Part shown: in pieces, positions 8,814-22,796 of the stretch
Layout of the letters: every line of letters begins with the position of its first letter
Position numbering within the stretch: position 1 is the stretch's first letter
NCBI GenBank assembly: GCA_030744435.1
Contig: JASLQO010000009.1
Location: 254,176-318,175, forward strand
From: Pseudomonadales bacterium
GTDB lineage: Bacteria; Pseudomonadota; Gammaproteobacteria; Pseudomonadales; Azotimanducaceae
Length of the DNA: 64,000 bases
Direction of reading: 5' to 3'
Notes under the pieces: model-generated
What the model saw: only the letters and a program-made list of their open reading frames with translations
What the model was told of the DNA's origin: nothing
Databases searched by the model: none
Translations under genes and position numbers: made by a program

Positions 8814-9631
8814 TTACGAGGTGCCTTTGTTCTTCTCCTTTTCGAGCGCCAGTGCCACACCGCCGAGACGGCGTTGCTCGGGATCTGCATCCTTCGCACG
8901 CACGGAGCCCGCCATCTCCAGCATCATGTAGCTGGAATGCGTTGCCTGAACAGCGTTGCGGTAGCCCATGGCGTCCTGAGCGGCGTTGATGGAGTTCTTC
9001 AGCATGCGCAGGGTGAGGGCGTCGTTTTTTGCGATTCGCTGCGCCTGGGCCATGGCAGATTCCATCAGCTCTTCGCGCGGGACCACCTCACACACCAGCC
9101 CGAGTTCGAGCGCTTCCGCGGCGTGGATGAAGCGGTTCTCGTACAGGATCTGCTTCGCCTTGCGCACTCCGAGATCCCAGGGTGCGGTAAAGAGCTGGAG
9201 ATGCGCGGGTAGAAACTTTGCATCGTCCGCGGCGATGATCAGGTCCATGCATGACGCGATCAGGTAGCCACCGAAAATGCAGTACCCCTGCACCGCGGCG
9301 ATGGTGGGTTTTTGACGTCGCGCCAACGAAGGCTCGAATCGATCATCAGGTGCCATGAGCGATTGATCCGGCCGAGCGTGCCGGGACCGAAGGGCTCGGC
9401 CTCCTGATCCGCGATTTCTTCAGGGGTGCCGAGATCGTGGCCGGCGGAGAAGTGCTCACTGGCGCCGCACAGCACGACGACACGCACGGAGGTGTCGTTG
9501 TCGGCCTCGGCAAAGGCATCGTTCATTTCCTCCAGCAGTATGCGTGATTGCGCGTTGCGGTAGCGCGGCCGGTTGAGGCGAATGATGGCGATGCGGTCGT
9601 GTTTTTCGGTTTCGATCTGCTGGTAGCTCAT
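8814..9631 (-). pseudogene. enoyl-CoA hydratase/isomerase family gene with a frameshift
   Basis: N-terminal half in the frame of ORF 9260..9745, from ATG 9631 (MSYQQIETEKHDRIAIIRLNRP...FSAGHDLG). C-terminal half in ORF 8814..9356 (...RQKPTIAAVQGYCIFGGYLIASCMDLIIAADDAKF). The frames switch around 9350-9370. The span of 818 nt is not a multiple of 3. Confidence 0.7.
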
Positions 9632-9645
9632 GCGAGGTGCCCTTC

Positions 9646-9930
9646 TTATCTGTCTCTTGAATGAAAGCTTATCGTGAATCCGGTGCACTGCCACATATGC
9701 CACGTCAAGACGAGGTAGAAAGCGAGTGCGGTGGCGAAGTGCCACTCGGAGATGTTTTCCAGCCAGTCATCGTTTTCGACCAGGTTGGCGAGCGTGGCCA
9801 GAACAAGGTCCTCCAGCAGCATGAAGAGCCCGACATCGAATAGGGCCGTCGCGAGGTCGGCGAAGACGCCGTGAAAAGCGCTGATGCCGAATAAAAAGAG
9901 TGTTATCAGCCCGAGGTTCCGTGGCAACAT
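9646..9930 (-). CDS. small hypothetical membrane protein
   Basis: ORF 9646..10053 trimmed to ATG 9930 (MLPRNLGLITLFLFGISAF...) so that it does not overlap the upstream B12-domain gene. Two or three hydrophobic helices. No recognisable family. Confidence 0.4.
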   Translation of the reverse strand: MLPRNLGLITLFLFGISAFHGVFADLATALFDVGLFMLLEDLVLATLANLVENDDWLENISEWHFATALAFYLVLTWHMWQCTGFTISFHSRDR

Positions 9931-9970: not shown

Positions 9971-10381
9971 TCACTTCGAATCGCACTTAGCCAGATCACG
10001 AATGGCATCCACAATCTCGTTTTGAGATGCCCTCGCATCGAACACGCCGTCAACTCCCTTCTCGATCATCTCCTCGGCGTCTTTGCTGGTTATGATCGAA
10101 CCTCCGATCACCACCCGGCAGTCGAGTCCTCTACTTCTGATGTCAGCGATGAGCCGAGGCACGAGCGTCAGATACTCCCAGGAGTGGCAGCTGATTCCGA
10201 CTACGTGTGCGCCCACTTTCTCGGCGTGCGCTGCAACCTGAGCGGGCGTATTGAAGACACCCATATAGCTCACGAACATCTGAGATTCCAACAGCATGCG
10301 TTGCACGGCTATCGCGCCATTTTCGTGCTGGTCTATACCCATGGTCGCGATCACGATTCTCGGTACACCCTTCATGTTCAA
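9971..10381 (-). CDS. cobalamin-binding small subunit of a divergent acyl-CoA mutase
   Basis: 136 aa. Rossmann-like B12-binding domain with the DxHxxG motif as GIDQHENG and a later GG motif (VIGGSII). The start overlaps the stop of the upstream large subunit by 4 nt. Confidence 0.85.
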   Translation of the reverse strand: MNMKGVPRIVIATMGIDQHENGAIAVQRMLLESQMFVSYMGVFNTPAQVAAHAEKVGAHVVGISCHSWEYLTLVPRLIADIRSRGLDCRVVIGGSIITSKDAEEMIEKGVDGVFDARASQNEIVDAIRDLAKCDSK

Positions 10382-11964
10382 AGCGGCAACTCGATCGTCG
10401 GCTCGATCATTGCATATGGATCATATGGCCGGTTCGTGACGAGCCGCATGATACCCGCCATCTCTCCGACCGTGACGTCGGCTTCGAAGCATTGCATGAC
10501 GACCGGTACGAGATTCCCACCATCCCTTACTGCTGTGGCGAGTCCCCGCATTGAATCTTTCGCGGCAGTTTGATCCCGGGTCCGTTTCAGGTTTCGAACC
10601 CGCTCCGTCTGGGTTTTGCATGCTTCGATCTTGGTTTCGGCGATATCCTTGAGAAGTTGGTCTTCTTCCTCAGGAACCACGTGGCAGTTCACACCGACAA
10701 TCGAGAGTTCTTCCTTCTGAACGGCGCGCTGACCTTCTTCCATCGCGCTGTGAAAAATATCTCGGAAGTAACCGCGTTCCTGAATCGCTTCGATATCCCC
10801 TGCGTTTTCTATCTCTTCGATTCGAGTCAGTATCCTGGTTTCGATTTCGTCAGTGAGCCATTCGACGAAGTGCGATCCGCCCAGGGGGTCGACCACTCGT
10901 GTCACCCCTGTCTCGGTTTCGATGATCTGCTGGGTACGAAGCCCTACGAGATGTCCTTCTTGGGAAGGCGTGCGATAGGCCTCGTCAAAGGTGGAGATTT
11001 CGATGGCATGAGCACCTCCGAGCACCAGCGATAACGCCTGCAGCGCACCGCGCGAAATATTGTTGACCGGTTGCTGGGCGGTCAGGGACAGACCCGACGT
11101 ATGACTGGTGAGTACGACCGTCTGGGAGCGCGGGTCCCGTGCGCCGAACTCGTCGCGCATGGTGCGTGCGAAAATGCGTCGGCTCGCCCGTAGCTTCGCC
11201 ACCTCCTCGAAGAAATCCATGCCGCAGTTGACGAGGATTGCGATTCTTGGAGCAAAAGCATCGATCTCCACACCGCGCTCGAGCAGTTTTCGTGTGAGGT
11301 GCCTTATCTCGACAAACCCCAGGGCCATTTCTTCCACCGCATCTAGACCGGACTCGCTGAAGAAGTAGGTATCTTCGACGTATGCGTGGAACTTCGGCAT
11401 GTGGCGCGCGCAGTATTCCATGCAATCCAGGGAGAGCCTGACACGCAATTCGACCGGCAGATGGTTGGCATAGGTGCAATCCTCGCCATAGAGCGGCATC
11501 TGTAGCACCGACCCCCGGACGGCGTCGGGCGGATAACCGTAGTGCTTTGCGGCGCACAGCAGGCCTGCAAGCGACATCAGGGACGGTACAGAGCTCGAGA
11601 CGGCCACCTTGTCCAGCGGAATATCTCTGAACAGATCGATGTAGTCCTGTTTGCAGCACAGCGAAACCCCCTGCGTGCCAACCGATGACTCGAGCAGTGG
11701 GTGGTCGGCGTCGAACATGCTCATGGTCGGGCCATCGCCGATGATATCCACGCCATCCTGACCCAGCTCCAACAGATACTTGATCTGCTGGTTGGATCGT
11801 TTGCCGTCTCCCTCACCCGACAACTCGCGCTGTTGCCAGCCCCCGGTCCTCGGTTGTGCGAATCGGCCGCGTGTGAAAGGAAAAACGCCGGGGCTTTCCG
11901 CGCCCTCTTTGCTATAGAAGGGTTGCAGCGAAACTCCGGATCGTGTTCTTTTTCTATCGTCCAT
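10378..11964 (-). CDS. divergent methylmalonyl-CoA-mutase-family catalytic (large) subunit, substrate unknown
   Basis: ORF trimmed to ATG 11964 behind a GAGGAGGG RBS. The C-terminal two thirds are MCM-family-like (FFEEVAKLRASRRIFA, TSGLSLTAQQPVNNISRGALQAL, VVDPLGGSHFVEWLTDEIE). The N-terminal substrate-binding motifs are replaced (see findings). Confidence 0.85.
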   Translation of the reverse strand: MDDRKRTRSGVSLQPFYSKEGAESPGVFPFTRGRFAQPRTGGWQQRELSGEGDGKRSNQQIKYLLELGQDGVDIIGDGPTMSMFDADHPLLESSVGTQGVSLCCKQDYIDLFRDIPLDKVAVSSSVPSLMSLAGLLCAAKHYGYPPDAVRGSVLQMPLYGEDCTYANHLPVELRVRLSLDCMEYCARHMPKFHAYVEDTYFFSESGLDAVEEMALGFVEIRHLTRKLLERGVEIDAFAPRIAILVNCGMDFFEEVAKLRASRRIFARTMRDEFGARDPRSQTVVLTSHTSGLSLTAQQPVNNISRGALQALSLVLGGAHAIEISTFDEAYRTPSQEGHLVGLRTQQIIETETGVTRVVDPLGGSHFVEWLTDEIETRILTRIEEIENAGDIEAIQERGYFRDIFHSAMEEGQRAVQKEELSIVGVNCHVVPEEEDQLLKDIAETKIEACKTQTERVRNLKRTRDQTAAKDSMRGLATAVRDGGNLVPVVMQCFEADVTVGEMAGIMRLVTNRPYDPYAMIEPTIELPL

Positions 11965-12003
11965 GGACCCTCCTCGTACCGGGTATGCCGTGTGGCTACG
12001 CAC

Positions 12004-12076
12004 TGTGATTCAGCATAACGAGCGAACGCGCGCTGAGAAACCGGAAGCTGATTCAGGGAAGCACTGAGCGAACGAG
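12004..12076. repeat. imperfect direct repeat in the 5' region of the divergent mutase gene
   Basis: TGATTCAG...GAGCGAACG occurs twice. The TGATTCAG copies are at 12006-12013 and 12049-12056, and the GAGCGAACG copies at 12020-12028 and 12066-12074. Both lie in the 149-nt gap between the 12114 stop and the 11964 start. Confidence 0.35.
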
Positions 12077-12113
12077 AATTGGTCGGAGCTTCCCCGCCAC
12101 TGGTGCGGCGCGC

Positions 12114-12530
12114 TCAAATCTGACGCACTTTCATCCGGCAGCGCTCAGCGCCTTCCGGAATTGTTTCACTGATCGTCAACTCTGCGCCGCAGCGTCTCAA
12201 CATGATGCGATCCATGTCCATAGCGGTGTCGCATGCGTAGCGATGCTCGCTTGCCGTGAATCCATACGGGCAATATGGAAGCTCGAGGGTGAACTCGTTT
12301 CCATCGATTTCAGAAAACCGAAACGGGAAGCCAAACTGCTGGCCAGAGTCGATGAGCTGCTGCTTCGTTTCGGCAATGGAATCCGTCTTGCGTACGCCCC
12401 CGAGCCATGGCAGAAAAGCCATGCACCAGCTCACCCCCCGCGCCAGAGGCTCTCCGATCAGCGGGATGTGCGACAGGAGCACATGAATCCCGCCCAGTAT
12501 GCGCATGAACGCGTCGATGTATCGCTGCAT
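12114..12530 (-). CDS. hypothetical Cys-containing protein (weak resemblance to the ATC-hydrolase-like domain)
   Basis: ORF 12114..12692 trimmed to ATG 12530 (MQRYIDAFMRILGG...). The C-terminal pattern LELPYCPYGF...ACDTAMDMDRIMLRRCGAELTISETIPEGAERCRMKV recalls PF14196-type proteins. This is from memory only. Confidence 0.4.
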   Translation of the reverse strand: MQRYIDAFMRILGGIHVLLSHIPLIGEPLARGVSWCMAFLPWLGGVRKTDSIAETKQQLIDSGQQFGFPFRFSEIDGNEFTLELPYCPYGFTASEHRYACDTAMDMDRIMLRRCGAELTISETIPEGAERCRMKVRQI

Positions 12531-12564
12531 TGCACTGTTCTCGGGTAGTGCCTTCAGAGGCTCC

Positions 12565-13098
12565 CTAGATGAAGACCTCCACCAGGTTTTCGATAAAAGC
12601 GGCCCCAATCCACGTGATCGGCACGATGACGGGGTACAAACCGAAACGCGCCACGATACTGAGGTTGAACGGCCACTCCGCCACCGTAGCAACTTCCCTT
12701 CGATAGGTCAGCAGGGGCCCCAGTATTTCAGCATTTACCAGCGGATCTCCACCCCTCGTTTCCTTGATGCTGTCCTGTATACGGGCGAGTACCGCCTGCT
12801 TTGCCTGCCGGAGCGCCAGGTGAATCGGCCAGACGGGAGCGAGGAAGAGGAACACCAGCGGTACAGCGGTTGCAACGAGTCCGGGGATGGTCGTCCGGGG
12901 GTCGGTGTCCGAAACCAGCCACATGATGGCAAACAGCGCCTGTGCTCCGATGACCATCAGCGTAGAATTCAGCGTCATGTCTCCAAACGGCATGAGGTTT
13001 CGATTGTCGAGCAGATCGATGGTCAGCTGATTCGAAAGTCTGCGGAACAGTCGTGCATTGTCACCAGTGCGCGCATCGCACAGGTCATGAACACTCAT
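12565..13098 (-). CDS. hypothetical integral membrane protein
   Basis: ORF 12565..13401 trimmed to ATG 13098 (MSVHDLCDARTGDN...). Several hydrophobic helices (LMVIGAQALFAIMWLV, GLVATAVPLVFLFLAPVW, FGLYPVIVPITWIGAAFI). May be the 3' part of one frameshifted gene together with 13145..13444. Confidence 0.45.
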   Translation of the reverse strand: MSVHDLCDARTGDNARLFRRLSNQLTIDLLDNRNLMPFGDMTLNSTLMVIGAQALFAIMWLVSDTDPRTTIPGLVATAVPLVFLFLAPVWPIHLALRQAKQAVLARIQDSIKETRGGDPLVNAEILGPLLTYRREVATVAEWPFNLSIVARFGLYPVIVPITWIGAAFIENLVEVFI

Positions 13099-13144
13099 GC
13101 GAATGCGGGCACTATGGCCATGGCAAACGTATTCACGCTGTTGG

Positions 13145-13444
13145 TTAGTGCATCCAGCATGCGTTGAAATCCTCCTGCCAGAAACCAGCTCTGCGACAGC
13201 CACAGTCCGATACCAAGAGCGGTATTTCCAACACCCACATGATGGAAAAGAGGTATGAGAGGGAATGAAGCGTCCTGTGTCCACGAAACACCAGGGGGGA
13301 CAGCATAGCCAAAACCAGAACCAGCGACAGTGGGCCTGCGAGCCAGAAAGCAAACGTAAATACCGGCATCGGGAACAGGGGATAGGACTCACGAATTGCA
13401 AGGACGGTGGAATTGTAGAGGAAGAAAGCCGTTAAGAACTTCAT
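13145..13444 (-). CDS. hypothetical small membrane protein (or 5' part of a split gene)
   Basis: ORF 13145..13513 trimmed to ATG 13444 (MKFLTAFFLYNSTVLAI...). Three hydrophobic segments. The stop lies 46 nt before the next ORF, and the neighbouring frame is open across the junction. Confidence 0.4.
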   Translation of the reverse strand: MKFLTAFFLYNSTVLAIRESYPLFPMPVFTFAFWLAGPLSLVLVLAMLSPLVFRGHRTLHSLSYLFSIMWVLEIPLLVSDCGCRRAGFWQEDFNACWMH

Positions 13445-13598
13445 CGGCGGCGTGGAGAGCGAGAGCGGCGACCAGCATGATCCAACCAAAAACCGCGAAG
13501 GCGCATCTGTCACATTTTGACCACGTTCGAAATGTAGAAAAATCCATTGAAATCAATATGATTGGCTTCAACTGCGCCGTACTCATGCAATATCCGGG

Positions 13599-14501
13599 CT
13601 AGAGGACCTCACCCAGTTTGCGCGCGAGTTCGGCATAGACTTCGCGGATGGGTCGTTGCAGGAGATCGCTTCGAGCCTCGTCGAACAGCTCGGCCACGCG
13701 CCGACTCATGAGGCTTTCCACGTGATAGCGCAGCCGCGCACGGCGGTGCAGATCGGCATCGTTGTGGTCATCACGCCAAAGGCTGTGTGCATTGATCGCT
13801 TCATCCAGCTCGGCGATAGAGTCGTCGGTAATTGACGCCGAGAGCACCGGTGGGCGCCATTCACCGGGTTCGACGTGACGATAGTCCACGACTGAGCGAA
13901 TGTCGTGCAACATCTGTTCGGCTCCCGCACAGTCGCACTTATTGACAACGTAGATGTCGGCTGTCTCGAGAATACCGGCCTTCATCGCCTGCACCGCATC
14001 TCCGGATTCGGGCACGAGTACTAATACCACGGTATCCACGAGGTTGCGGATCTCGTAGTCCGCCTGACCGACCCCGACGGTTTCGAGAATCACCTCGTCG
14101 AATCCGTGCTTATCGAGAACCATCAGCATTTCACAGATGTTGTCGGCCAGACCGTCATGGGCATTGCGACTGGGAATCGAGCGGATATACAGCCCAGGGT
14201 GTTCGGCCACGGTGTCCATACGAATCCGGTCACCGAGAATGGAGCCACGTGAGATGGGGCTGGTGGGGTCTATGGCTAGTACCGCCATTCGCGCCCGCGC
14301 TTCGAGGCGAGTGGCCGCCAGGCGCGCGATGAGCGTGCTCTTTCCTGCGCCCGGCGGCCCGGTTATACCGATTCGCGTTGCCGGGTCATGCGGTGAACTG
14401 GCCACGGCGGCCAGACAGTCTGCGACACTGGCGCGTGAGGCCCTCGTGAGGGCCCGGCTCAGGGCGCGTCGGTTGGAGAGGCGGGGTGGCGACTCCATCA
14501 C
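13599..14501 (-). CDS. meaB: methylmalonyl-CoA-mutase-associated G-protein chaperone (MeaB/ArgK family)
   Basis: P-loop GITGPPGAGKSTLI and NKxD motif VVNKCD. 4-nt overlap with the upstream B12-subunit gene. Confidence 0.9.
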   Translation of the reverse strand: MMESPPRLSNRRALSRALTRASRASVADCLAAVASSPHDPATRIGITGPPGAGKSTLIARLAATRLEARARMAVLAIDPTSPISRGSILGDRIRMDTVAEHPGLYIRSIPSRNAHDGLADNICEMLMVLDKHGFDEVILETVGVGQADYEIRNLVDTVVLVLVPESGDAVQAMKAGILETADIYVVNKCDCAGAEQMLHDIRSVVDYRHVEPGEWRPPVLSASITDDSIAELDEAINAHSLWRDDHNDADLHRRARLRYHVESLMSRRVAELFDEARSDLLQRPIREVYAELARKLGEVL

Positions 14502-14893
14502 GACAACGCCGCTTCCAGCGCGCTGAGCGTATCGTTGAGGCTCATCTCGCTGGTGAATACACCGAGTGCACCCATCTCCAGCAGAGCCTGGGTATCCTGC
14601 GGTGCAATGGTGCCGCCGATGAACACCCCTATATTCGCCGCGCCGAGCTTGGCGAGTTCATCCAGCGTTTGGGCCAGAAGTGTGTGGTGGGAACCGGACA
14701 GGATACTCAAGCCCACCGCATCGACATCCTCGTCGGCCGCTACACGCGCGATGTAGTCAGGGCTCTTTCGCAGGCCCGTGTAGATGACGTCCGCACCGGC
14801 ATCCCGGAGAGCCAGCGTGATGATCTTGGCACCGACGTCGTGACCGTCGAGACCAGGCTTGGCGATCAGAATACGTTTTCCTTTGAGACTCAT
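14498..14893 (-). CDS. cobalamin-binding small subunit of acyl-CoA mutase
   Basis: 131 aa. DxHxxG as GLDGHDVG, SxL-type LSILSGSH and GG motif FIGGTI. Confidence 0.9.
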   Translation of the reverse strand: MSLKGKRILIAKPGLDGHDVGAKIITLALRDAGADVIYTGLRKSPDYIARVAADEDVDAVGLSILSGSHHTLLAQTLDELAKLGAANIGVFIGGTIAPQDTQALLEMGALGVFTSEMSLNDTLSALEAALS

Positions 14894-14924
14894 GAATGGT
14901 CCTCTCCAGTGGCGGGAAGTAGCT

Positions 14925-16559
14925 TCATGCCCTCAGAGGAGGCTCCTGAAACTCTCCCCAGTGCCTCTTGAGCTCTCCCACCATCTCACCGACGGTGGCA
15001 TAGGCGTGGCAACACTCGACCAGAAGGGGCATTAGGTTGACATCATCATGGATCGCGGCGCTGGCGAGCGCTTTGAGCGCTTTCTCCGTGCGCACATTGT
15101 CACGCCGGTCTCGAATCGCTTCGTATTTGGCGATGATGCGCCTGCGATTATCGGGATCCTGACGAAACACCTCACCGAAACCCGCGTGCTCTTCGTCTCG
15201 CTGGTAACGGTTCACACCCACCACTATACGTTGACCCGCGTCCACCTGCCGCTTGCGCTCCCGTGCCCGTTCGACGATGCGCATCTGAATGTAGCCCTCC
15301 TCGATGGCTTTCACGACCCCTCCGTAGTCGTCGATCTCCTGCATTACCCGCAGAATCTTATCCTCCATGCGATCGGTTAGATACTCCACGTAGTAGCTGC
15401 CGCCGAGCGGATCGACAGTGTCGGCGATGCCGCTTTCGTGGGAGATGATCTGTTGGGTGCGCAGAGCCAGTTCGGCACTCTGTTCGGTCGGAATCTGAAA
15501 GGCCTCGTCGTACGCGGAGGTAAAAATGGATTGCGCGCCGCCCAGTACCGCGGCCATGGTTTCCGTGCCCACACGAACCACGTTGTTGAGTGGTTGTGCG
15601 GCCGTTAGGGAAGAACCACCACACACGACACCGAAGCGAAACAGAAGGCTTCTGGGATCCTTTGCATCGTAGCGTTCCTGCAGGAGCCGCGCCCATATGC
15701 GCCTGGCCGCCCGAAACTTGGCCACTTCCTCGAAGAGGTCCATATGTACGTAGAAAAAGAAGCTCAGGCGCCGGGCGAAACTGTCGATATCGACACCGCG
15801 AGCCAGTAGTTCATTCACGTAGGCAAGTCCGTTGGCGAGCGTGTAGCCGATCTCCTCCGCCGCTGTGCAGCCGGCATCACGCACATGCGCACCAGCGATA
15901 CTGATGGGGTTGAAACGTGGGCTTTCCTGATTGGCGTACACGATCGAGTCGGCGATTAGGCGCATGGAGGGTTTCACCGGGAAGATCCAGGTGCCGCGCG
16001 CTACGTACTCCTTGAGGATGTCGTTTTGGATGGTGCCGGACAACGACGCTCTCGGCACTCCCGCGTTGTCCGCGGCGGCCAGGTACATGGCGAAGATGAT
16101 GGCCGCGGTGCTATTGATGGTGAACGACGTGGAGATGGCGCCGAGGTCGATGCCATCCAACAACACTTCCATTTCCGCGAGGTTCGACAGCGATACACCA
16201 ACCTTGCCCACCTCGGCGCTCGCCACGATGTCCACCGGGTCGTAGCCGCATTGAGTCGGCAGGTCCAGCGCCACGGACAGACCGGTCTGGCCCTGATCCA
16301 ACAGAAACCGGTAACGCTCGTTGGATTCTTCGGCAGAACCGAACCCCGAATACTGGCGCATGGTCCAGCGGCGACCGCGAAATCCGTTGGCGAAGATGCC
16401 ACGCGTGTAGGGCATCTGACCGGGCAGTCCGGGATCAGGATTTCCCAGCATCTCCGGCGTTACCAGCACCGGCACTTCTATACCCGAAGGCGTGAACGCG
16501 GGTGCGGGCTCAGGTTTGGTTTCGGTCGTCACTTCGAGCTCCTCTGGTCTTGCTTGCAA
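14925..16559 (-). CDS. acyl-CoA mutase large (catalytic) subunit, MCM-like
   Basis: 544 aa. YTRG...WTMRQYSGFGSAEESNERYRFLLDQGQTGLSVALDLPT, GTIQNDILKEYVARGTWIFP, QPLNNVVRVGTETMAAVLGG, VDPLGGSYYVEYLT. Tyr and Arg are retained at the MCM Tyr89/Arg207-type positions. Confidence 0.9.
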   Translation of the reverse strand: MQARPEELEVTTETKPEPAPAFTPSGIEVPVLVTPEMLGNPDPGLPGQMPYTRGIFANGFRGRRWTMRQYSGFGSAEESNERYRFLLDQGQTGLSVALDLPTQCGYDPVDIVASAEVGKVGVSLSNLAEMEVLLDGIDLGAISTSFTINSTAAIIFAMYLAAADNAGVPRASLSGTIQNDILKEYVARGTWIFPVKPSMRLIADSIVYANQESPRFNPISIAGAHVRDAGCTAAEEIGYTLANGLAYVNELLARGVDIDSFARRLSFFFYVHMDLFEEVAKFRAARRIWARLLQERYDAKDPRSLLFRFGVVCGGSSLTAAQPLNNVVRVGTETMAAVLGGAQSIFTSAYDEAFQIPTEQSAELALRTQQIISHESGIADTVDPLGGSYYVEYLTDRMEDKILRVMQEIDDYGGVVKAIEEGYIQMRIVERARERKRQVDAGQRIVVGVNRYQRDEEHAGFGEVFRQDPDNRRRIIAKYEAIRDRRDNVRTEKALKALASAAIHDDVNLMPLLVECCHAYATVGEMVGELKRHWGEFQEPPLRA

Positions 16560-19860: not shown

Positions 19861-20313
19861 ATGTTGAGAATTGGCGATATGGCACCCGAGTTCGAACTCG
19901 CCGACCAGTCCGGCAGCACCGTAACGCTGAACCAGCTAGTTGCCGATGGCGATGTCGTTCTCTATTTCTATCCGGCTGACTTCTCGCCGGTATGCACCGC
20001 TGAAGCGTGTGCGTTTCGCGACAGCTACGAAGACGTCTCGAGTGTGGGGGTGCGGGTCGTGGGTGTGAGTCCGCAAGGCGTCGGTAGCCATCAACGATTC
20101 TCAAACCGTTTTTCCATCCCGTTTCCGCTCTTGAGCGATCCGCAGAAAATCACCATCAAGGCCTATGGTGTAGATGGTCCTTTGGGTTTCGGGGTCAGGC
20201 GAGCCACCTTTCTGATCGACGCTAAGAAAACCGTTCGAAACCGGGTCGTCTCGGATCTGTTCATTGGCTCTCACACGGAACTGCTCAACAAAACCGTGCG
20301 CGAACGCGTATAG
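19861..20313 (+). CDS. bcp: thiol peroxidase (peroxiredoxin Bcp type)
   Basis: APEFELADQSG...VVLYFYPADFSPVCTAEACAFRD with the peroxidatic Cys motif. Confidence 0.9.
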   Translation: MLRIGDMAPEFELADQSGSTVTLNQLVADGDVVLYFYPADFSPVCTAEACAFRDSYEDVSSVGVRVVGVSPQGVGSHQRFSNRFSIPFPLLSDPQKITIKAYGVDGPLGFGVRRATFLIDAKKTVRNRVVSDLFIGSHTELLNKTVRERV

Positions 20314-20333: not shown

Positions 20334-22796
20334 CTATTTCAACAATCCCCGTGCCTCGGCGTCGAGTACTGCCGCCTCGTCCATGTTCAGCCATTGCTGC
20401 AGGACAATGGCATTGTCCTCACCCAGCTCGCGTGTGCGCCGGTAGCTGTTACAGGGTGTGCGTTCGAAGTCGATCGGCAGGCGATCGGCCCACGCCTGGT
20501 TGATTGCAGGGCTAACATCGTCGATCGGTCGTGCGAAGCGAGACACGGCAAGCTGTGGATCCTGTTCCATCAGATCGATTCCGGTCTGGACCACACCTGC
20601 GGGCACACCCGCTCGCTGGCAGATGTCCATCACCGTGTAGGCGTCCTTGTGGCTGGTCCATCGTGCGATCTGTTCGTCGATTTCTGCCATTGCGCGAACA
20701 CGGCCAGCGCTGGTATCCAACTCGGCGTTGGCCGCCCATGGAGGATCGCCCAGAACGTGTTTCAGATTCCGCCATTGTTCGTCGCTCATGCACGCGATTG
20801 CCACCCAACGCTCATCGGCAACTGTCCGAGCCACCTCGGGCTCACAGCGGTAACAGCCGTGAGGTGCCGCCAGATCGTAAGGGAGCCGGTTTCCAGTGGG
20901 TCGAACCGCGCAAGCGTTCGCGAACAGATCGAGCAGTGCGGGGCCGGCGAAATTGACACCCACCTCGAATTGGGAAATATCCACTCTCTGACCACGGCCC
21001 GTGCGATGCCGCGCTTCCAATGCCGCCAGGATGGCGACGGCCCCGTGTAAACCGGCTTGATGATCGTTGTACGAAAAACCGAGACCGATATTGTCGCGTC
21101 CTTCCACACCGGTCAGGTGGGTCAGTCCGGCCAGGGCATGAACTGTTGGTGCGTAGGTGACGAACCCCGACCAGGGCCCGCCATCGCCCATGCCGGACAT
21201 CTGCACGTAGATAACGCCCGGTCGGGTTGCGCTGATTTGCTCATAACCGACTCCCCATCGCTCGAGCACACCGACGGAGAAGTTGTCGATGACCACATCC
21301 GCATTTTCGCACAGCTGCCGGCAGATGCTGTGACTCTCGGGGTGTGTCATATCCAGCGCGAGCGAGCGCTTGTTGCGGTTCCACATCAGATAGTAGGGAT
21401 GCTCGGTCCCATGGGTGCCGATAGCTCGGTCGGCGGAGTTTACCTTTACCACGTCCGCACCCATGTCACCGAGTACGCGCGTCGCGAAGGGTCCTGCCAG
21501 GACGTGGGTGAAGTCTAGAATACGCAGGCCTTCGAGGGGCCGCTGGGAAGGTTGCACCGGGCCACCCGCCGCCGTCGTCGTTGGCCGATCTTCCCAGCCG
21601 ATGTCGGTGATCGGCCCGGCTGCCTCGCCAGGATAGGCATGCAGGCTCCACGGTGTACGCGAGAAATGGTAAGGCGCACCGGGCGAGCGGATCTCGGCTT
21701 CGTTGACTCGATACGGTACAAACCAGTCCCGTGCTTCGAGCTGCGGGTTGTCGGCGACTTTTTCGATGGGCAGCACCCAGCCATAGGGTACATGTCGTTG
21801 CTGAGCATCGAAAAAGAGCTTCTCGACATCCTTAGTGGCGGCCCAGCGTCGCAGTACGTCCATGGTTCGCTCGATACGCAAACTCATGTTCTCGGGTTCG
21901 AGGTACTTTGGATCCGCGAGATCCTCGTGGGCATCCTCCTCGATCAACCACACCAGTTGCGCATCGAAATCCGGGGCCGGTGTGATCATGATATCGCCGC
22001 CCCGGGCGTGCATAACGTCGTATGCGTTCGACCAGTGCAAGGCGCCCCGCCGCGGCAGCATCTTGTCATTGGGTCGACCCATGGCTTCTGCGTACCAGTA
22101 CAGCATAAACACCTGCTCCAGGCAGGATGCGATGCACTCGTGCACCGGCACCCCTACCTGTTGGCTGAATCCCCGTACGCGCCGGTTGCACAGTGCGGCC
22201 AGTGCCGCAATAGCGACGTACACGCCGGAAACCATGAAATTGAGCTCGCCAAAACCCTTCAGGGGAGGTGTGTCCACATCTCCCGTCGTGGCCGCAGCGC
22301 CTGCGAGTGCACCGGCTACGAGATCCGGTGCCAGATAGTCCCGCCAGGGACCGTTCGTACCGAACGAGGAGCAGTTGACGACGATCAGCTCCGGCCTGCG
22401 GGCGCGAGCACCTTCGAGATCGAGGTGGTCCAGGCAGAAACCGCCCCGACAGGTCAGAACCAGATCTGACTGGTCGATGAGCTCTTCGAGCCCGGCGAGG
22501 TCCGTTGCATTGTGTGGATCGACTCCGACAAAGCGTCGATTAGATGCGAAGAATGCATGCCACAGGGAAGTGCTTGGCTGATCCGAGTGCTCGTGATACG
22601 GGCCACGATTGCGCAGGGGATCTCCTCCCGGCGGCTCCGGTCGGACGACGTCGGCACCGAGGTCGGCCAACAACTTTGCTCCGTAAATAGCCCGTTCGTC
22701 GGTGAGATCGACCACACGAATAGCGGACAGAGCACCTCCGGACGGTTCAGTGTTGCTGTTTTTTCCACCGGTCTTTCCACTGGCGTGGTCCATCAA
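20334..22796 (-). CDS. tandem-fused family III (CaiB/BaiF) CoA-transferase, two complete modules
   Basis: 820 aa. Module 1 starts LSAIRVVDLTDERAIYGAKLLADLGADVVRPEPPGGDP. Module 2 starts LEGLRILDFTHVLAGPFATRVLGDMGADVVKVNS. Each module is about 400 aa. Confidence 0.85.
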   Translation of the reverse strand: MMDHASGKTGGKNSNTEPSGGALSAIRVVDLTDERAIYGAKLLADLGADVVRPEPPGGDPLRNRGPYHEHSDQPSTSLWHAFFASNRRFVGVDPHNATDLAGLEELIDQSDLVLTCRGGFCLDHLDLEGARARRPELIVVNCSSFGTNGPWRDYLAPDLVAGALAGAAATTGDVDTPPLKGFGELNFMVSGVYVAIAALAALCNRRVRGFSQQVGVPVHECIASCLEQVFMLYWYAEAMGRPNDKMLPRRGALHWSNAYDVMHARGGDIMITPAPDFDAQLVWLIEEDAHEDLADPKYLEPENMSLRIERTMDVLRRWAATKDVEKLFFDAQQRHVPYGWVLPIEKVADNPQLEARDWFVPYRVNEAEIRSPGAPYHFSRTPWSLHAYPGEAAGPITDIGWEDRPTTTAAGGPVQPSQRPLEGLRILDFTHVLAGPFATRVLGDMGADVVKVNSADRAIGTHGTEHPYYLMWNRNKRSLALDMTHPESHSICRQLCENADVVIDNFSVGVLERWGVGYEQISATRPGVIYVQMSGMGDGGPWSGFVTYAPTVHALAGLTHLTGVEGRDNIGLGFSYNDHQAGLHGAVAILAALEARHRTGRGQRVDISQFEVGVNFAGPALLDLFANACAVRPTGNRLPYDLAAPHGCYRCEPEVARTVADERWVAIACMSDEQWRNLKHVLGDPPWAANAELDTSAGRVRAMAEIDEQIARWTSHKDAYTVMDICQRAGVPAGVVQTGIDLMEQDPQLAVSRFARPIDDVSPAINQAWADRLPIDFERTPCNSYRRTRELGEDNAIVLQQWLNMDEAAVLDAEARGLLK

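Follow-up and report, generated by a model that had tools for sequence, protein, structure and literature searches.

A widely distributed clade of B12-dependent acyl-CoA mutase-like proteins with a conserved, rebuilt acyl pocket, represented by a two-subunit pair in a Pseudomonadales bacterium

The minus-strand gene at 10378..11964 of the 64,000-nucleotide stretch of Pseudomonadales DNA analysed here (the window) encodes a full-length large subunit of the MCM family, and profile alignments show that the acyl end of its barrel was rebuilt and then frozen across phyla. The protein belongs to a clade, designated 'L-D-I-G ... H-Y-F ... H' after its pocket residues, that by sequence comparison is distinct, widely distributed and, as far as tested, without a characterised member. 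The large subunit and its B12-binding partner look functional, and the substrate or the catalytic arrangement of the clade is probably one that has not yet been described.

The product (528 aa, 58.8 kDa) matches Pfam PF01642 (MM_CoA_mutase) at E=1.5e-124 and 416.8 bits (cut-off 22.1) over model positions 1-510 of 512, as well as TIGR00641 at 357.4 bits (cut-off 303.8), which confirms the MCM-family assignment proposed in an initial annotation made from the letters alone. The open reading frame begins at GTG 12003; given the GGAGG 4 nt before ATG 11964 and the agreement of this ATG with the N-termini of homologues, the originally proposed limits of the gene, 10378-11964, are correct. The same annotation had aligned the C-terminal two-thirds of the protein with a second mutase large subunit in the window (14925-16559); all of the peptides it quoted are present, but the entire protein aligns and not just that part (33.7% identity over 498 aa). 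An AF2 model (pLDDT 74.8, pTM 0.78) is predicted to have the fold of a catalytic (alpha-type) chain: Foldseek superimposed it on catalytic chains (MMUT/MCM alpha, HcmA, and MutB) with TM 0.76-0.79 at ~30% identity, versus TM 0.55-0.59 at ~20% identity for MutA beta chains. Coordinates of the gene, its neighbors, and its key pocket segments are listed in Table 1.

Table 1. Location and supporting evidence of the features discussed, in window coordinates
Feature	Position	Strand	Evidence or remarks
Enoyl-CoA hydratase, PRK08290-like	8814..9745	-	Directly downstream of the pair; -1 frameshift
Small B12-binding subunit, ~134-136 aa	9971..10381	-	PF02310 2.4e-14; TIGR00640 79.6 bits (cut-off 57)
Large subunit (substrate-binding, TIM-barrel) of AdoCbl-dependent acyl-CoA mutase	10378..11964	-	PF01642, TIGR00641, AF2/Foldseek
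SHTSG, strand 7	11092..11106	-	Gln330 -> His288 (258/258); His328 -> Thr286
PKFHAYVEDTYFFSESG	11347..11397	-	His193 (=Asn236), Tyr200 (=Tyr243), Phe201 (=His244), Glu204 (=Glu247)
GSVLQMPLYGEDCTYANHLP, strand 4 and next loop/helix	11455..11514	-	Arg207 position without Arg or Gln
GVDIIGDG, barrel strand 2	11731..11754	-	Asp73 (=Ser114), Ile75 (=Ala116 in MCM, Asp117 in HcmA), Gly76 (=Phe117)
WQQRELSGEG, barrel strand 1	11809..11838	-	Arg46 (=Arg87) retained; Tyr89 -> Leu48
Shine-Dalgarno GGAGG	11969..11973	-	4 nt upstream of ATG 11964; direct sequence reading
MeaB G-protein chaperone	13599..14501	-	PF03308 at 1e-68
Second mutase	14498..16559	-	Upstream; large subunit 14925-16559, small subunit 14498-14893

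By its motif content, the gene that follows is shown to supply the large subunit with its own His-on B12-binding subunit. Translation of this small subunit starts either at TTG 10381, with a 4-nt overlap with the large-subunit stop, or at ATG 10375, 2 nt past it. Its DxHxxG motif, already recognized in the initial annotation, reads DQHENG (10316-10333) and is kept in 25/25 aligned small subunits of the family. The only MeaB of the cluster lies 1.6 kb upstream of the pair and probably serves both mutases. The hydratase gene downstream is broken by its frameshift at a T5 run (9309-9313, plus strand). The ORFs at 12114-13513, between MeaB and the target, had no homologues in the fetched loci of relatives, and their only Pfam match was a sub-threshold ATC_hydrolase. 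A scan of the window against Rfam found no cobalamin riboswitch and no other Rfam family, and a promoter and terminator scan gave nothing above chance level.

Profile alignments with MutB of P. shermanii, human MCM, and HcmA served to map the pocket positions (MCM residues are given in P. shermanii numbering), and conservation was counted in an alignment of 258 sequences, the target and 257 homologues; which residues face the substrate is presumed from homology and from the published MCM and HCM structures. The three substitutions first noticed, Leu for Tyr89, Phe for His244, and the absence of Arg at the Arg207 position, were borne out, and careful alignment did not restore Tyr, Arg, or His equivalents at the canonical positions. 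Leu48 is present in 258/258 sequences, and Phe201 is Phe in 239 and Tyr in 18 (Phe/Tyr in 257/258). The register of residues 152-170 is ambiguous by one residue: gapless alignment places Thr164 (Gly/Ser in the family) at the Arg207 position, a one-residue shift places the invariant Tyr165 there, and Arg or Gln is never found; likewise, the Gln197 position is taken by Leu154, or by Gln155 in the shifted register. Besides positions 89, 207, and 244, some 20 more pocket positions are altered, with further replacements at Ala139 (Gln98), Thr166 (Ser125), Phe287 (Leu244), Arg326 (Val284), Ser362 (Ala320), and Asn366 (Ser324). Invariant in 258/258 are Leu48, Asp73, Gln98, Ser125, His193, Leu244, His288, Ala320, and Ser324, and Tyr200 is present in 257/258; Glu161-Asp162-Cys163 and Tyr165 within GSVLQMPLYGEDCTYANHLP are also invariant residues of the family.

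The description of the substrate-contact motifs as all replaced is accurate for Tyr89, Arg207, and His244 but too sweeping, as Tyr243, Arg87, Gly91, Asp118, Ser164, Glu247, Arg283, and Glu370 are kept; the CoA-arm and adenosyl residues among these are Arg46, Gly50, Asp77, Ser123, Glu204, Arg240, and Glu328 in the target. The use of 14925-16559 as an internal reference was similarly only partly sound: this subunit retains Tyr89/Arg207/His244 but departs from MCM at Tyr243 (Ala), His328 (Gly), and Gln330 (Val). The earlier proposal that the pair is probably a functional cobalamin enzyme is upheld by the conserved DxHxxG partner, the retained cofactor and CoA contacts, and the predicted catalytic fold.

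The limits of the clade are sharp. In BLASTP against the target, all family loci had at least 49% identity and all other mutases at most 40%, the 257 aligned homologues being 52-78% identical to the target. A neighbor-joining tree recovers the clade as monophyletic on a long stem, and clustering of a library at 50% identity reduces it to a single full-length representative (794 bits), the next full-length protein scoring 456 bits. Hundreds of distinct sequences are spread over Pseudomonadales, Alphaproteobacteria, Desulfobacterales, Acidobacteriota, Binatia, Chloroflexota, Actinomycetota, and Bacillota; among 72,556 plasmids searched, no family member was found on any. Between the target and its 78% relative, dN was 0.15 and dS was saturated, so that dN/dS is not computable. 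Orthologues are intact, abundant, and strongly constrained, in answer to the earlier concern that they might be consistently pseudogenised; an intact frame, a ribosome-binding site, and residues that do not vary among the 258 sequences rule out a pseudogene or chance divergence. The pocket changes are thus, on the alignment, conserved and not a product of drift. The implied singularity of the rebuilt pocket has to be tempered: the replacements are real, but 72 of the 110 closest full-length representatives of clusters likewise lack His244. Rebuilt pockets are therefore common among uncharacterised superfamily members, and the target clade is one of many uncharted ones.

These data bear on whether the large subunit is a non-catalytic paralogue, either a structural or regulatory subunit resembling MutA, the beta chain of MCM, or a gene that is decaying along with its operon, as the missing general acid His244, the frameshift in the adjacent hydratase, and a complete, canonical-looking mutase 3 kb away might suggest. 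Such a role is very improbable: the subunit has its own co-translated B12 partner with a DxHxxG conserved in all 25 aligned small subunits of the family, its fold is nearer to catalytic chains than to MutA, its TIGR00642 (MutA) score is 119 bits against a cut-off of 617, its reading frame is intact behind a strong ribosome-binding site, and in most genomes the family mutase is accompanied by an SDR and by no other mutase. Pocket invariance across phyla is, moreover, the opposite of what relaxed selection would leave.

The initial statement that the residue combination matches no characterised specificity class holds for the classes compared: MCM, HcmA, and IcmF structures are at most 36% identical to the large subunit, Xaut_5043 is 31% identical, and RcmA was compared by its published residues only. 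The best solved relative is HcmAB, the 2-hydroxyisobutyryl-CoA mutase (HCM) of Aquincola tertiaricarbonis (4r3u; 2.9e-82 with the single sequence and 1.9e-119 with the family profile), which has in common with the target split subunits, no carboxylate-binding Arg, an aliphatic residue at the Tyr89 position, and, likely, a link to 3-hydroxyacyl-CoA metabolism. However, HcmA is only ~36% identical, and the target N-terminus is ~40 residues shorter. HcmA has His244, Gln330, Asn236, and Ser114, where the target has Phe, His, His, and Asp; Gln197, where the target has Leu (or Gln in the shifted register); Asp117, where the target has Ile75; and the specificity residue Ile90, where the target has Leu48. 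HCM operons include the HCL ligase and a GntR regulator (PMC7176365), whereas the clade-associated ligase is of another type, its best solved relative being 3ivr, a 'long-chain' ligase, with HCL not among its 60 best solved relatives. An HCM-type enzyme is ruled out by Leu48, Ile75, Phe201, His288, and the non-HCL ligase.

In the acetone pathway of sulfate reducers, a FabG-annotated 3-hydroxybutyryl-CoA dehydrogenase is paired with an RcmAB-like 2-hydroxyisobutyryl-CoA mutase (PMC7888143, PMC7176365), and the RcmAB-like mutase of Desulfococcus biacutus has a FabG-annotated dehydrogenase and MeaB as partners (PMC7888143), as do many clade loci. RCM is the RcmAB enzyme of Kyrpidia tusciae and Bacillus massiliosenegalensis (RcmA accessions D5WTR7 and WP_019152977). 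Both specificity positions are hydrophobic in RCM (Ile95/Val122) and in the clade (Leu48/Ile75). The ten published residues of BmRcmA (B. massiliosenegalensis), V92, I95, E102, V122, E137, P163, V172, H174, Y252, and F296, meet Q45, L48, a variable position, I75, L90, P116, S125, P127, Y200, and L244 in the target clade, giving six or seven clashes of ten with family-conserved residues, depending on register. RcmA would also be ~45 residues longer than the 58.8-kDa target, judging from the residue numbers used for RcmA and from the 64.7-kDa mass of the D. cetonica subunit. An RCM or acetone-pathway mutase is set apart by these residue identities and by size. No D. biacutus, D. cetonica, or Kyrpidia protein was among the best 120 hits when members from Deltaproteobacteria and Bacillota were sought with a profile, and a homologue search with P0308, whose pattern looks RcmA-like, recovered a Deltaproteobacteria group with no named RCM in it.

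A third comparison is offered by Xaut_5043/5044 of Xanthobacter autotrophicus Py2 (plasmid CP000782), which we take to be pivalyl-CoA mutase (PCM), an identification reportedly made by Kitanishi et al. in 2015. Split subunits, an adjacent MeaB, Leu at the Tyr89 position, Gln at -3, and Pro at the Asn168 position are common to both systems. In contrast to the target, Xaut_5043 retains His244, Gln330, Asn236, Ser114, Phe287, and Ser362; it is 31.5% identical to the target (29-36% to the clade) and clusters with ICM-like sequences (40-42%). A PCM of this kind is ruled out by the 31% identity and the retained His244. More broadly, the clade enzyme might be a purely aliphatic branched acyl-CoA mutase (for pivalyl/isovaleryl or quaternary-carbon 'neo' acids) with the PCM/ICM reaction carried out by another lineage, a reading that would suit the shared Leu, a hydrophobic wall of Ile75, Leu/Ile154, Phe201, Phe202, and Leu244, and the carboxyltransferase, ACAD, and ECH genes near some family members, reminiscent of leucine-type degradation. 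It is nonetheless improbable, in that Xaut_5043, which shares the Leu, is only 31% identical and retains His244, Gln330, Asn236, and Ser114, the most constant genomic partner, a 3-oxoacyl reductase/3-hydroxyacyl dehydrogenase, has no role in pivalate or isovalerate metabolism, and many invariant polar residues are left unexplained.

MCM (MutB/MMUT) and IcmF share with the target the fold, the cofactor module, and the chaperone, but neither the MCM set Tyr89/Arg207/His244/Gln197 nor the ICM set Phe/Gln/His is present in it. MCM (EC 5.4.99.2) was rejected on a score of 305.5 bits with the NCBIfam equivalog NF006944 (cut-off 876) and on Leu48, Thr164/Tyr165, Phe201, and Leu154/Gln155, and ICM/IcmF on an NF045497 score of 166.6 bits (against 1500) and a match to IcmF structures only at 1.8e-39; the ICM signature FAQQNYHQ occurs in ICM-like loci and not in the target. 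IaaGH is a benzylmalonyl-CoA mutase (PMC8360864); as the target has no Arg/Tyr pair, a dicarboxyl-CoA substrate of the ethylmalonyl- or benzylmalonyl-type appears unlikely. Literature on lactyl-, glutaryl-, and 3-hydroxypropionyl-CoA mutases yielded only engineered HCM/RCM variants. The nearest neighbors in the tree are other uncharacterised, non-canonical clades of PF01642, for example the 'V/L-I-Q-G-Y-Y-D-H' clade (Desulfobacterales, Syntrophaceae). They resemble the target clade in the loss of His244, in Ile at 116 and His at 330, and in the small residue at 207, but differ in having Asp at 244 (Phe in the target), Tyr at 236, a retained Gln197, at most 40% identity, and a different neighborhood, often with two or three paralogous mutases side by side.

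Of 30 family loci from the target clade, 20 have a FabG/PhaB/(3R)-hydroxyacyl-CoA-dehydrogenase-like SDR within 8 kb. In at least 12 loci, from Alpha-, Delta-, and Gammaproteobacteria, Anaerolineae, Binatia, and Bacillota, the SDR gene immediately precedes the mutase in the same orientation. Hydratases of the ECH or MaoC type and 3HCDH are also recurrent neighbors of family members (ECH also follows the small subunit in Desulfotruncus, locus L004, and Desulfobacterales, locus L086), an AMP-forming CoA ligase is found in 11/30 loci, and MeaB is within 8 kb in only 5/30. Since SDR, ECH/MaoC, 3HCDH, and CoA ligase all make or use 3-hydroxyacyl-CoA, we infer a hydroxylated acyl-CoA, although only through guilt by association, in neighborhoods where acyl-CoA genes abound. 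In the window itself, only hydratases flank the target pair, and neither tblastn with SDRs of family loci (E<1e-8) nor Pfam scans of selected ORFs found an SDR; its absence beside the pair and the non-HCL type of the clade ligase speak against a hydroxyacyl substrate.

The described substrate pairs of these enzymes are methylmalonyl/succinyl, isobutyryl/butyryl, ethylmalonyl/methylsuccinyl, 2-hydroxyisobutyryl/3-hydroxybutyryl, pivalyl/isovaleryl, and benzylmalonyl/phenylsuccinyl. The clade enzyme would catalyze the radical 1,2-shift of the -CO-SCoA group that is usual for the family, on a substrate that, because Arg207 and Tyr89 are both gone, would carry no carboxylate; this substrate may be an uncharged acyl-CoA of short or medium length that bears a hydroxyl. 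The likeliest reaction would interconvert a 3-hydroxyacyl-CoA, probably the (R)-form, and a 2-hydroxy-2-methylacyl-CoA, and HCM/RCM-type chemistry would then have been reached by a third lineage, with Asp73 and/or Asp162 binding the hydroxyl like Asp117 in HcmA. His244 hydrogen-bonds to the thioester carbonyl, a role most likely passed to the invariant His288 (Gln330 position) or His193 (Asn236 position); alternatively, its loss could mean a different chemical step. Taken as a whole, the view that this is a working two-subunit AdoCbl-dependent mutase of a distinct, uncharacterised clade with 3-hydroxyacyl-/2-hydroxy-2-methylacyl-CoA chemistry is an evenly balanced judgement. The further proposition, that an undescribed substrate pair is combined with a relocated apparatus (His288 and/or His193 for His244) in a new catabolic step, is put forward more tentatively.

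The invariant Asp73, Glu161, and Asp162 with two histidines exceed the apparent polarity needs of a C4 hydroxyacyl group, and the gained acidic residues and histidines would be equally compatible with an amino-acyl or polyhydroxy-acyl group. These residues might bind an acyl-CoA that is positively charged or polyhydroxylated (e.g., a 3-amino- or lactone-derived hydroxyacyl-CoA), in a reaction beyond the known repertoire. Such a reaction would accommodate the invariant Asp73, Glu161, Asp162, His193, His288, Gln98, and Tyr165 found in place of Ser, Phe, Met, Asn, Gln, Ala, and Asn. Its genomic context would be the ABC transporter adjoining the ligase-SDR-mutase genes in soil Alphaproteobacteria, with a permease that carries a fused SGL/strictosidine-synthase-like (lactonase-type) domain, together with the SGL protein, aminotransferase, and amidase close to the mutase of the 78% relative. 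This possibility appears rather unlikely, as the pocket-facing orientation of Glu161 and Asp162 is putative, the transporter association is confined to one lineage, and plain hydroxyacyl-CoA chemistry is the simpler account of the SDR, ECH, and ligase pattern.

To our knowledge, few reactions of B12-dependent acyl-CoA mutases have been described, and all of the acyl-CoA mutases studied so far that we know of use His244. With Phe in its place and two new invariant barrel histidines, the clade is a natural experiment on mechanism, and its pocket is conserved residue by residue, so its enzyme must do something specific and useful. The constant SDR partner suggests a cheap assay design with coupling to NAD(P)H, and Desulfotruncus alcoholivorax is a cultured clade host for physiology. 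A survey by Jost et al. (JBC, 2015) is said to have already predicted undiscovered specificities, and uncharted pocket variants being the rule and not the exception in the superfamily tempers the novelty. Known mutase reactions have each opened a pathway or an engineering route, for instance the ethylmalonyl-CoA pathway, MTBE and acetone degradation, and synthetic CO2-fixing modules (PMC11599936). If the undescribed substrate pair and the relocation of the His244 function are both true, the clade would represent a new catabolic step in bacteria from sea, soil, and sediment that belong to many phyla.

The gene pair at 9971-11964 is predicted to encode a functional B12-dependent acyl-CoA mutase that belongs to a sharply delimited, uncharacterised clade and acts on a hydroxylated acyl-CoA, an assignment to which we give roughly even chances as a whole. 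The prediction of a functional enzyme with a distinct specificity is held more firmly than this, and that of a hydroxylated acyl-CoA as the probable substrate less firmly. The open reading frame containing the large-subunit gene extends from GTG 12003 to 10378 on the minus strand. Since a GGAGG precedes ATG 11964 and the N-terminus so defined (MDDRKRTRSG...) agrees with those of homologues, the gene boundaries proposed in the initial annotation were retained. The product matches Pfam MM_CoA_mutase over its entire length (E=1.5e-124, model positions 1-510 of 512). The only NCBIfam model it passes is the generic TIGR00641 (357 bits vs. a cut-off of 304), scoring far under the cut-offs of the MCM (305 vs. 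876), IcmF (167 vs. 1500), and MutA (119 vs. 617) equivalogs. The small-subunit start either overlaps the large-subunit stop codon (TGA, 10378-10380) or lies next to it, and the DxHxxG motif previously read in the small subunit is present.

Coordinates of the features discussed (window positions, except for the last row)
Feature	Position	Strand	Details
Enoyl-CoA hydratase, frameshifted	8814-9745	-	directly downstream of small subunit
B12-binding small subunit	9971-10381	-	134-136 aa; PF02310, TIGR00640; DQHENG = DxHxxG
Large subunit	10378-11964	-	ATG 11964; 528 aa, 58.8 kDa
Shine-Dalgarno-like GGAGG	11969-11973	-	four bases 5' of ATG 11964
ORFs between MeaB and large subunit	12114-12692, 12565-13401, 13145-13513		within 1.6-kb stretch 12003-13599
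MeaB chaperone	13599-14501	-	upstream of large subunit
Second mutase, small subunit	14498-14893	-	upstream of large subunit
Second mutase, large subunit	14925-16559	-	upstream of large subunit
Tandem family-III CoA-transferase protein	20334-22796	-	two domains, 820 aa
Putative PCM operon (L090)	259432-264870		X. autotrophicus pXAUT01

To assign pocket positions, profile and pairwise alignments against solved structures (HcmA 4r3u, human MMUT, and the MCMs of M. tuberculosis and P. shermanii) were combined with a MAFFT alignment of 123 sequences anchored to P. shermanii numbering; the residues contacting substrate or cofactor in MCM are taken to be those described in the structural work of Mancia/Evans and Kurteva-Yaneva. 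Replacements comprise Tyr89 to Leu48, Ser114 to Asp73, Ala116 (HcmA Asp117) to Ile75, Phe117 to Gly76, Ala139 to Gln98, Thr166 to Ser125, Asn168 to Pro127, Asn236 to His193, His244 to Phe201, Phe287 to Leu244, Arg326 to Val284, His328 to Thr286, Gln330 to His288, Ser362 to Ala320, and Asn366 to Ser324. The stretch GSVLQMPLYGEDCTYANHLP stands in place of an equally long, 20-residue segment of the second large subunit in the window (a protein 33.7% identical to the first over 498 aa), and its alignment is uncertain by one residue, so that Arg207 corresponds to either Thr164 (Gly or Ser in relatives) or the invariant Tyr165, and Gln197 to Leu154 or Gln155; in both registers, position 207 holds neither Arg nor Gln. 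The Leu, the Phe, and the missing Arg first read at positions 89, 244, and 207 were thereby upheld, but the accompanying claim that all substrate-contact motifs are replaced was too broad: Tyr243 is unchanged (Tyr200), and Arg87, Gly91, Asp118, Ser164, Glu247, Arg283, and Glu370 are kept. In an AF2 model (pLDDT 74.8, pTM 0.78), the replaced residues map to predicted barrel strands (46-49, 71-76, 121-125, 150-154, 192-195, 242-245, and 284-288), and superposition of the model scores TM 0.76-0.79 with catalytic chains, compared to 0.55-0.59 with inactive MutA chains.

One homologue search returned at least 120 proteins, 56-78% identical to the large subunit except for one 100%-identical fragment, and a second, profile-based search at least 120 proteins 61-94% identical to its own query; combined, they yielded at least 257 full-length proteins (52-78% identity), all annotated only in generic terms (e.g., 'acyl-CoA mutase large subunit family protein'). 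Among the matches listed, the nearest relatives (78% identity) come from marine Pseudomonadales MAGs, and Desulfotruncus alcoholivorax is the only cultured host. A one-genome-per-species scan placed family loci in Alpha-, Delta-, and Gammaproteobacteria, as well as Holophagales/Acidobacteriota, Vicinamibacteraceae, Anaerolineaceae, Binatia, Solirubrobacteraceae, and Xanthobacteraceae. The clade is monophyletic with a long stem in an NJ tree, and it is separated from other mutases by an empty gap in BLASTP identity (≥49% for all family loci, ≤40% for all others); after clustering of a library at 50% identity, a single full-length sequence (794 bits) represents the whole clade, and the full-length protein ranked next reaches 456 bits. 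Leu48, Asp73, Gln98, Ser125, His193, Leu244, His288, Ala320, and Ser324 are unchanged in all 258 family sequences, and position 201 is Phe in 239 and Tyr in 18. Between the large subunit and a 78%-identical relative, dN is 0.15 and dS is saturated. Among the cognate small subunits, which constitute a separate conserved type (lG.DqHe.GA ... GiScHSweyl ... GGsvit), all 25 aligned have DxHxxG.

Solved structures and residue signatures gave no match to MCM, ICM/IcmF, or HCM (2-hydroxyisobutyryl-CoA mutase), in line with the initial annotation, which had found no fitting specificity class. Xaut_5043/5044 of Xanthobacter autotrophicus Py2, which we take to be the genes for pivalyl-CoA mutase (PCM), lie on plasmid pXAUT01 beside a MeaB homologue. 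Xaut_5043 also has Leu at position 89; however, it retains His244, Gln330, Asn236, and Ser114, clusters with ICM-like proteins, and is only 31.5% identical to the large subunit (29-36% to the clade), which argues against PCM identity. Consistent with this low identity, no PLSDB plasmid encodes anything >37% identical to the large subunit. Xaut_5043 carries Gln at the Tyr243 position, and its operon reads TetR, small subunit, large subunit, MeaB, PaaD-like thioesterase, phenylacetate-CoA-ligase-like protein, AMP ligase, and ABC transporter.

RcmA, of the second 2-hydroxyisobutyryl-CoA mutase type (RCM), was compared through ten published residues of the B. massiliosenegalensis protein, anchored at the Tyr89 position. 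These residues (V92, I95, E102, V122, E137, P163, V172, H174, Y252, and F296; PMC11599936 supplement) fall on Gln45, Leu48, a variable site, Ile75, Leu90, Pro116, Ser125, Pro127, Tyr200, and Leu244; judged from these ten, six or seven, depending on register, clash with family-conserved residues, which speaks against RCM identity. The published numbering also implies an N-terminus ~45 residues longer, in keeping with the acetone pathway of Desulfosarcina and Desulfococcus, whose 'RcmAB-like' large subunit has 64.7 kDa (PMC7888143, PMC7176365), as opposed to 58.8 kDa here. ECM (ethylmalonyl-CoA mutase) and IaaGH (PMC8360864) act on dicarboxylic substrates, and a substrate of this type is unlikely for the present enzyme because both Arg207 and Tyr89 are missing. 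The intact gene pair and the lack of a class match thus support the original interpretation of a cobalamin enzyme with distinct specificity, its activity being predicted.

Gene neighbourhoods were compared for 30 family loci and three further loci carrying Pfam labels. In 28 of the 30, the small-subunit gene comes after that of the large subunit. An SDR of FabG/PhaB type is present within 8 kb in 20 of them and, in at least 12 loci from different phyla, is the adjacent upstream gene on the mutase strand; the nearest solved relatives of this SDR are 3-oxoacyl reductases, (3R)-hydroxyacyl-CoA dehydrogenase, acetoacetyl-CoA reductases, and BbsD. AMP-forming CoA ligases, of a type other than HCL (the HCM-associated ligase), occur near the mutase in 11/30 loci, and crotonase/MaoC hydratases, 3HCDH, ACADs, and thiolase-like proteins also recur. 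Gene order is SDR-large-small-ECH in Desulfobacterales CP070771, large-small-ECH-ligase-SDR in Desulfotruncus, and large-small-ECH in the window, where the ORFs scanned include no SDR. For none of the three ORFs at 12114-13513 did the 88 loci compared contain a homologue; the sole Pfam match in 12003-13599 is a below-threshold ATC_hydrolase (E=0.006), and GC is slightly reduced (0.565-0.57).

Because every constant partner makes or uses 3-hydroxyacyl-CoA, the simplest reading of this gene content is a hydroxyacyl-CoA mutase that would interconvert 2-hydroxy-2-methylacyl-CoA and 3-hydroxyacyl-CoA, the latter probably in the (R)-form since the partner is of PhaB/FabG type. The acetone pathway offers a precedent, pairing a FabG-annotated dehydrogenase with a mutase (PMC7888143). 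The reaction would proceed by the radical 1,2-shift of the mutase family, with His288 or His193 hydrogen-bonding the carbonyl of the migrating thioester in place of His244 and Asp73 or Asp162 binding the substrate hydroxyl. The pocket is more polar and acidic than would seem necessary for a C4 hydroxyacyl group. In soil Alphaproteobacteria (L006, L007, L009, L087, L088), a sugar-type ABC transporter adjoins the ligase-SDR-mutase genes. An SGL/strictosidine-synthase-like (lactonase-type) domain forms part of its permease, and there is a second such protein as well, hinting at a lactone or hydroxy-acid substrate. Given this lactonase-fused transporter in some lineages, the polar and acidic pocket, the non-HCL ligase, and the lack of an SDR in the window, a genuinely new substrate is a live possibility.

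The second large subunit, used initially as an internal reference, keeps Tyr89, Gln197, Arg207, and His244 but departs from the canonical enzyme at Tyr243 (Ala), His328 (Gly), and Gln330 (Val). Since P0333, an independent representative from the 50% clustering, shares this signature, the second large subunit looks like a conserved class of its own, perhaps a dicarboxyl-CoA mutase with a pocket enlarged for alkyl-/aryl-malonyl/succinyl-CoA. In the hydratase beside the small subunit, a base missing from an A5 run (T5 on the plus strand, 9309-9313) breaks the gene into two overlapping ORFs, and six A would restore the frame ...LRWRDVKKPTIAAVQGYC...; this reflects either a homopolymer sequencing error or real inactivation. 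Another enoyl-CoA hydratase lies upstream of the large subunit on the same strand. Between the mutase cluster and the tandem CoA-transferase gene, a few kb away, lie a TetR regulator and a small ORF (19861-20313). The 64-kb window is rich in acyl-CoA metabolism (at least five crotonase-family hydratases and two ACADs) and also encodes ligases, a thioesterase, CoA transferases, and an RND pump; an Rfam scan of it detected neither a cobalamin riboswitch nor any other family.

Among the 110 full-length 50%-identity representatives closest to the family profile (within P0271-P0420), only 24 have a canonical-like triad (Tyr/Phe/Ile89, Arg/Gln207, and His244) and just 38 keep His244; since 72 of the 110 lack it, this 'universal' residue is universal only in the few enzymes studied. 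Residues at this position include Asn, Asp, Val, Ile, Gly, Gln, Cys, and Ala. The nearest tree neighbours of the clade have Asp or Val there, many with His at 330 and/or 236. The closest such clade (Val/Leu89, Ile116, Gly207, Tyr236, Asp244, His330) occurs in Desulfobacterales, Syntrophaceae, and Thermodesulfobacteriota (L031-L049), and several of its loci (L033, L036, L040) encode two or three distinct mutase large subunits next to one another. New specificities have reportedly been predicted already from such analyses by Jost et al. (JBC 2015). Pocket diversity in PF01642 extends far beyond what the characterised enzymes suggest, and the clade described here is one abundant, well-defined case within this large uncharted diversity.
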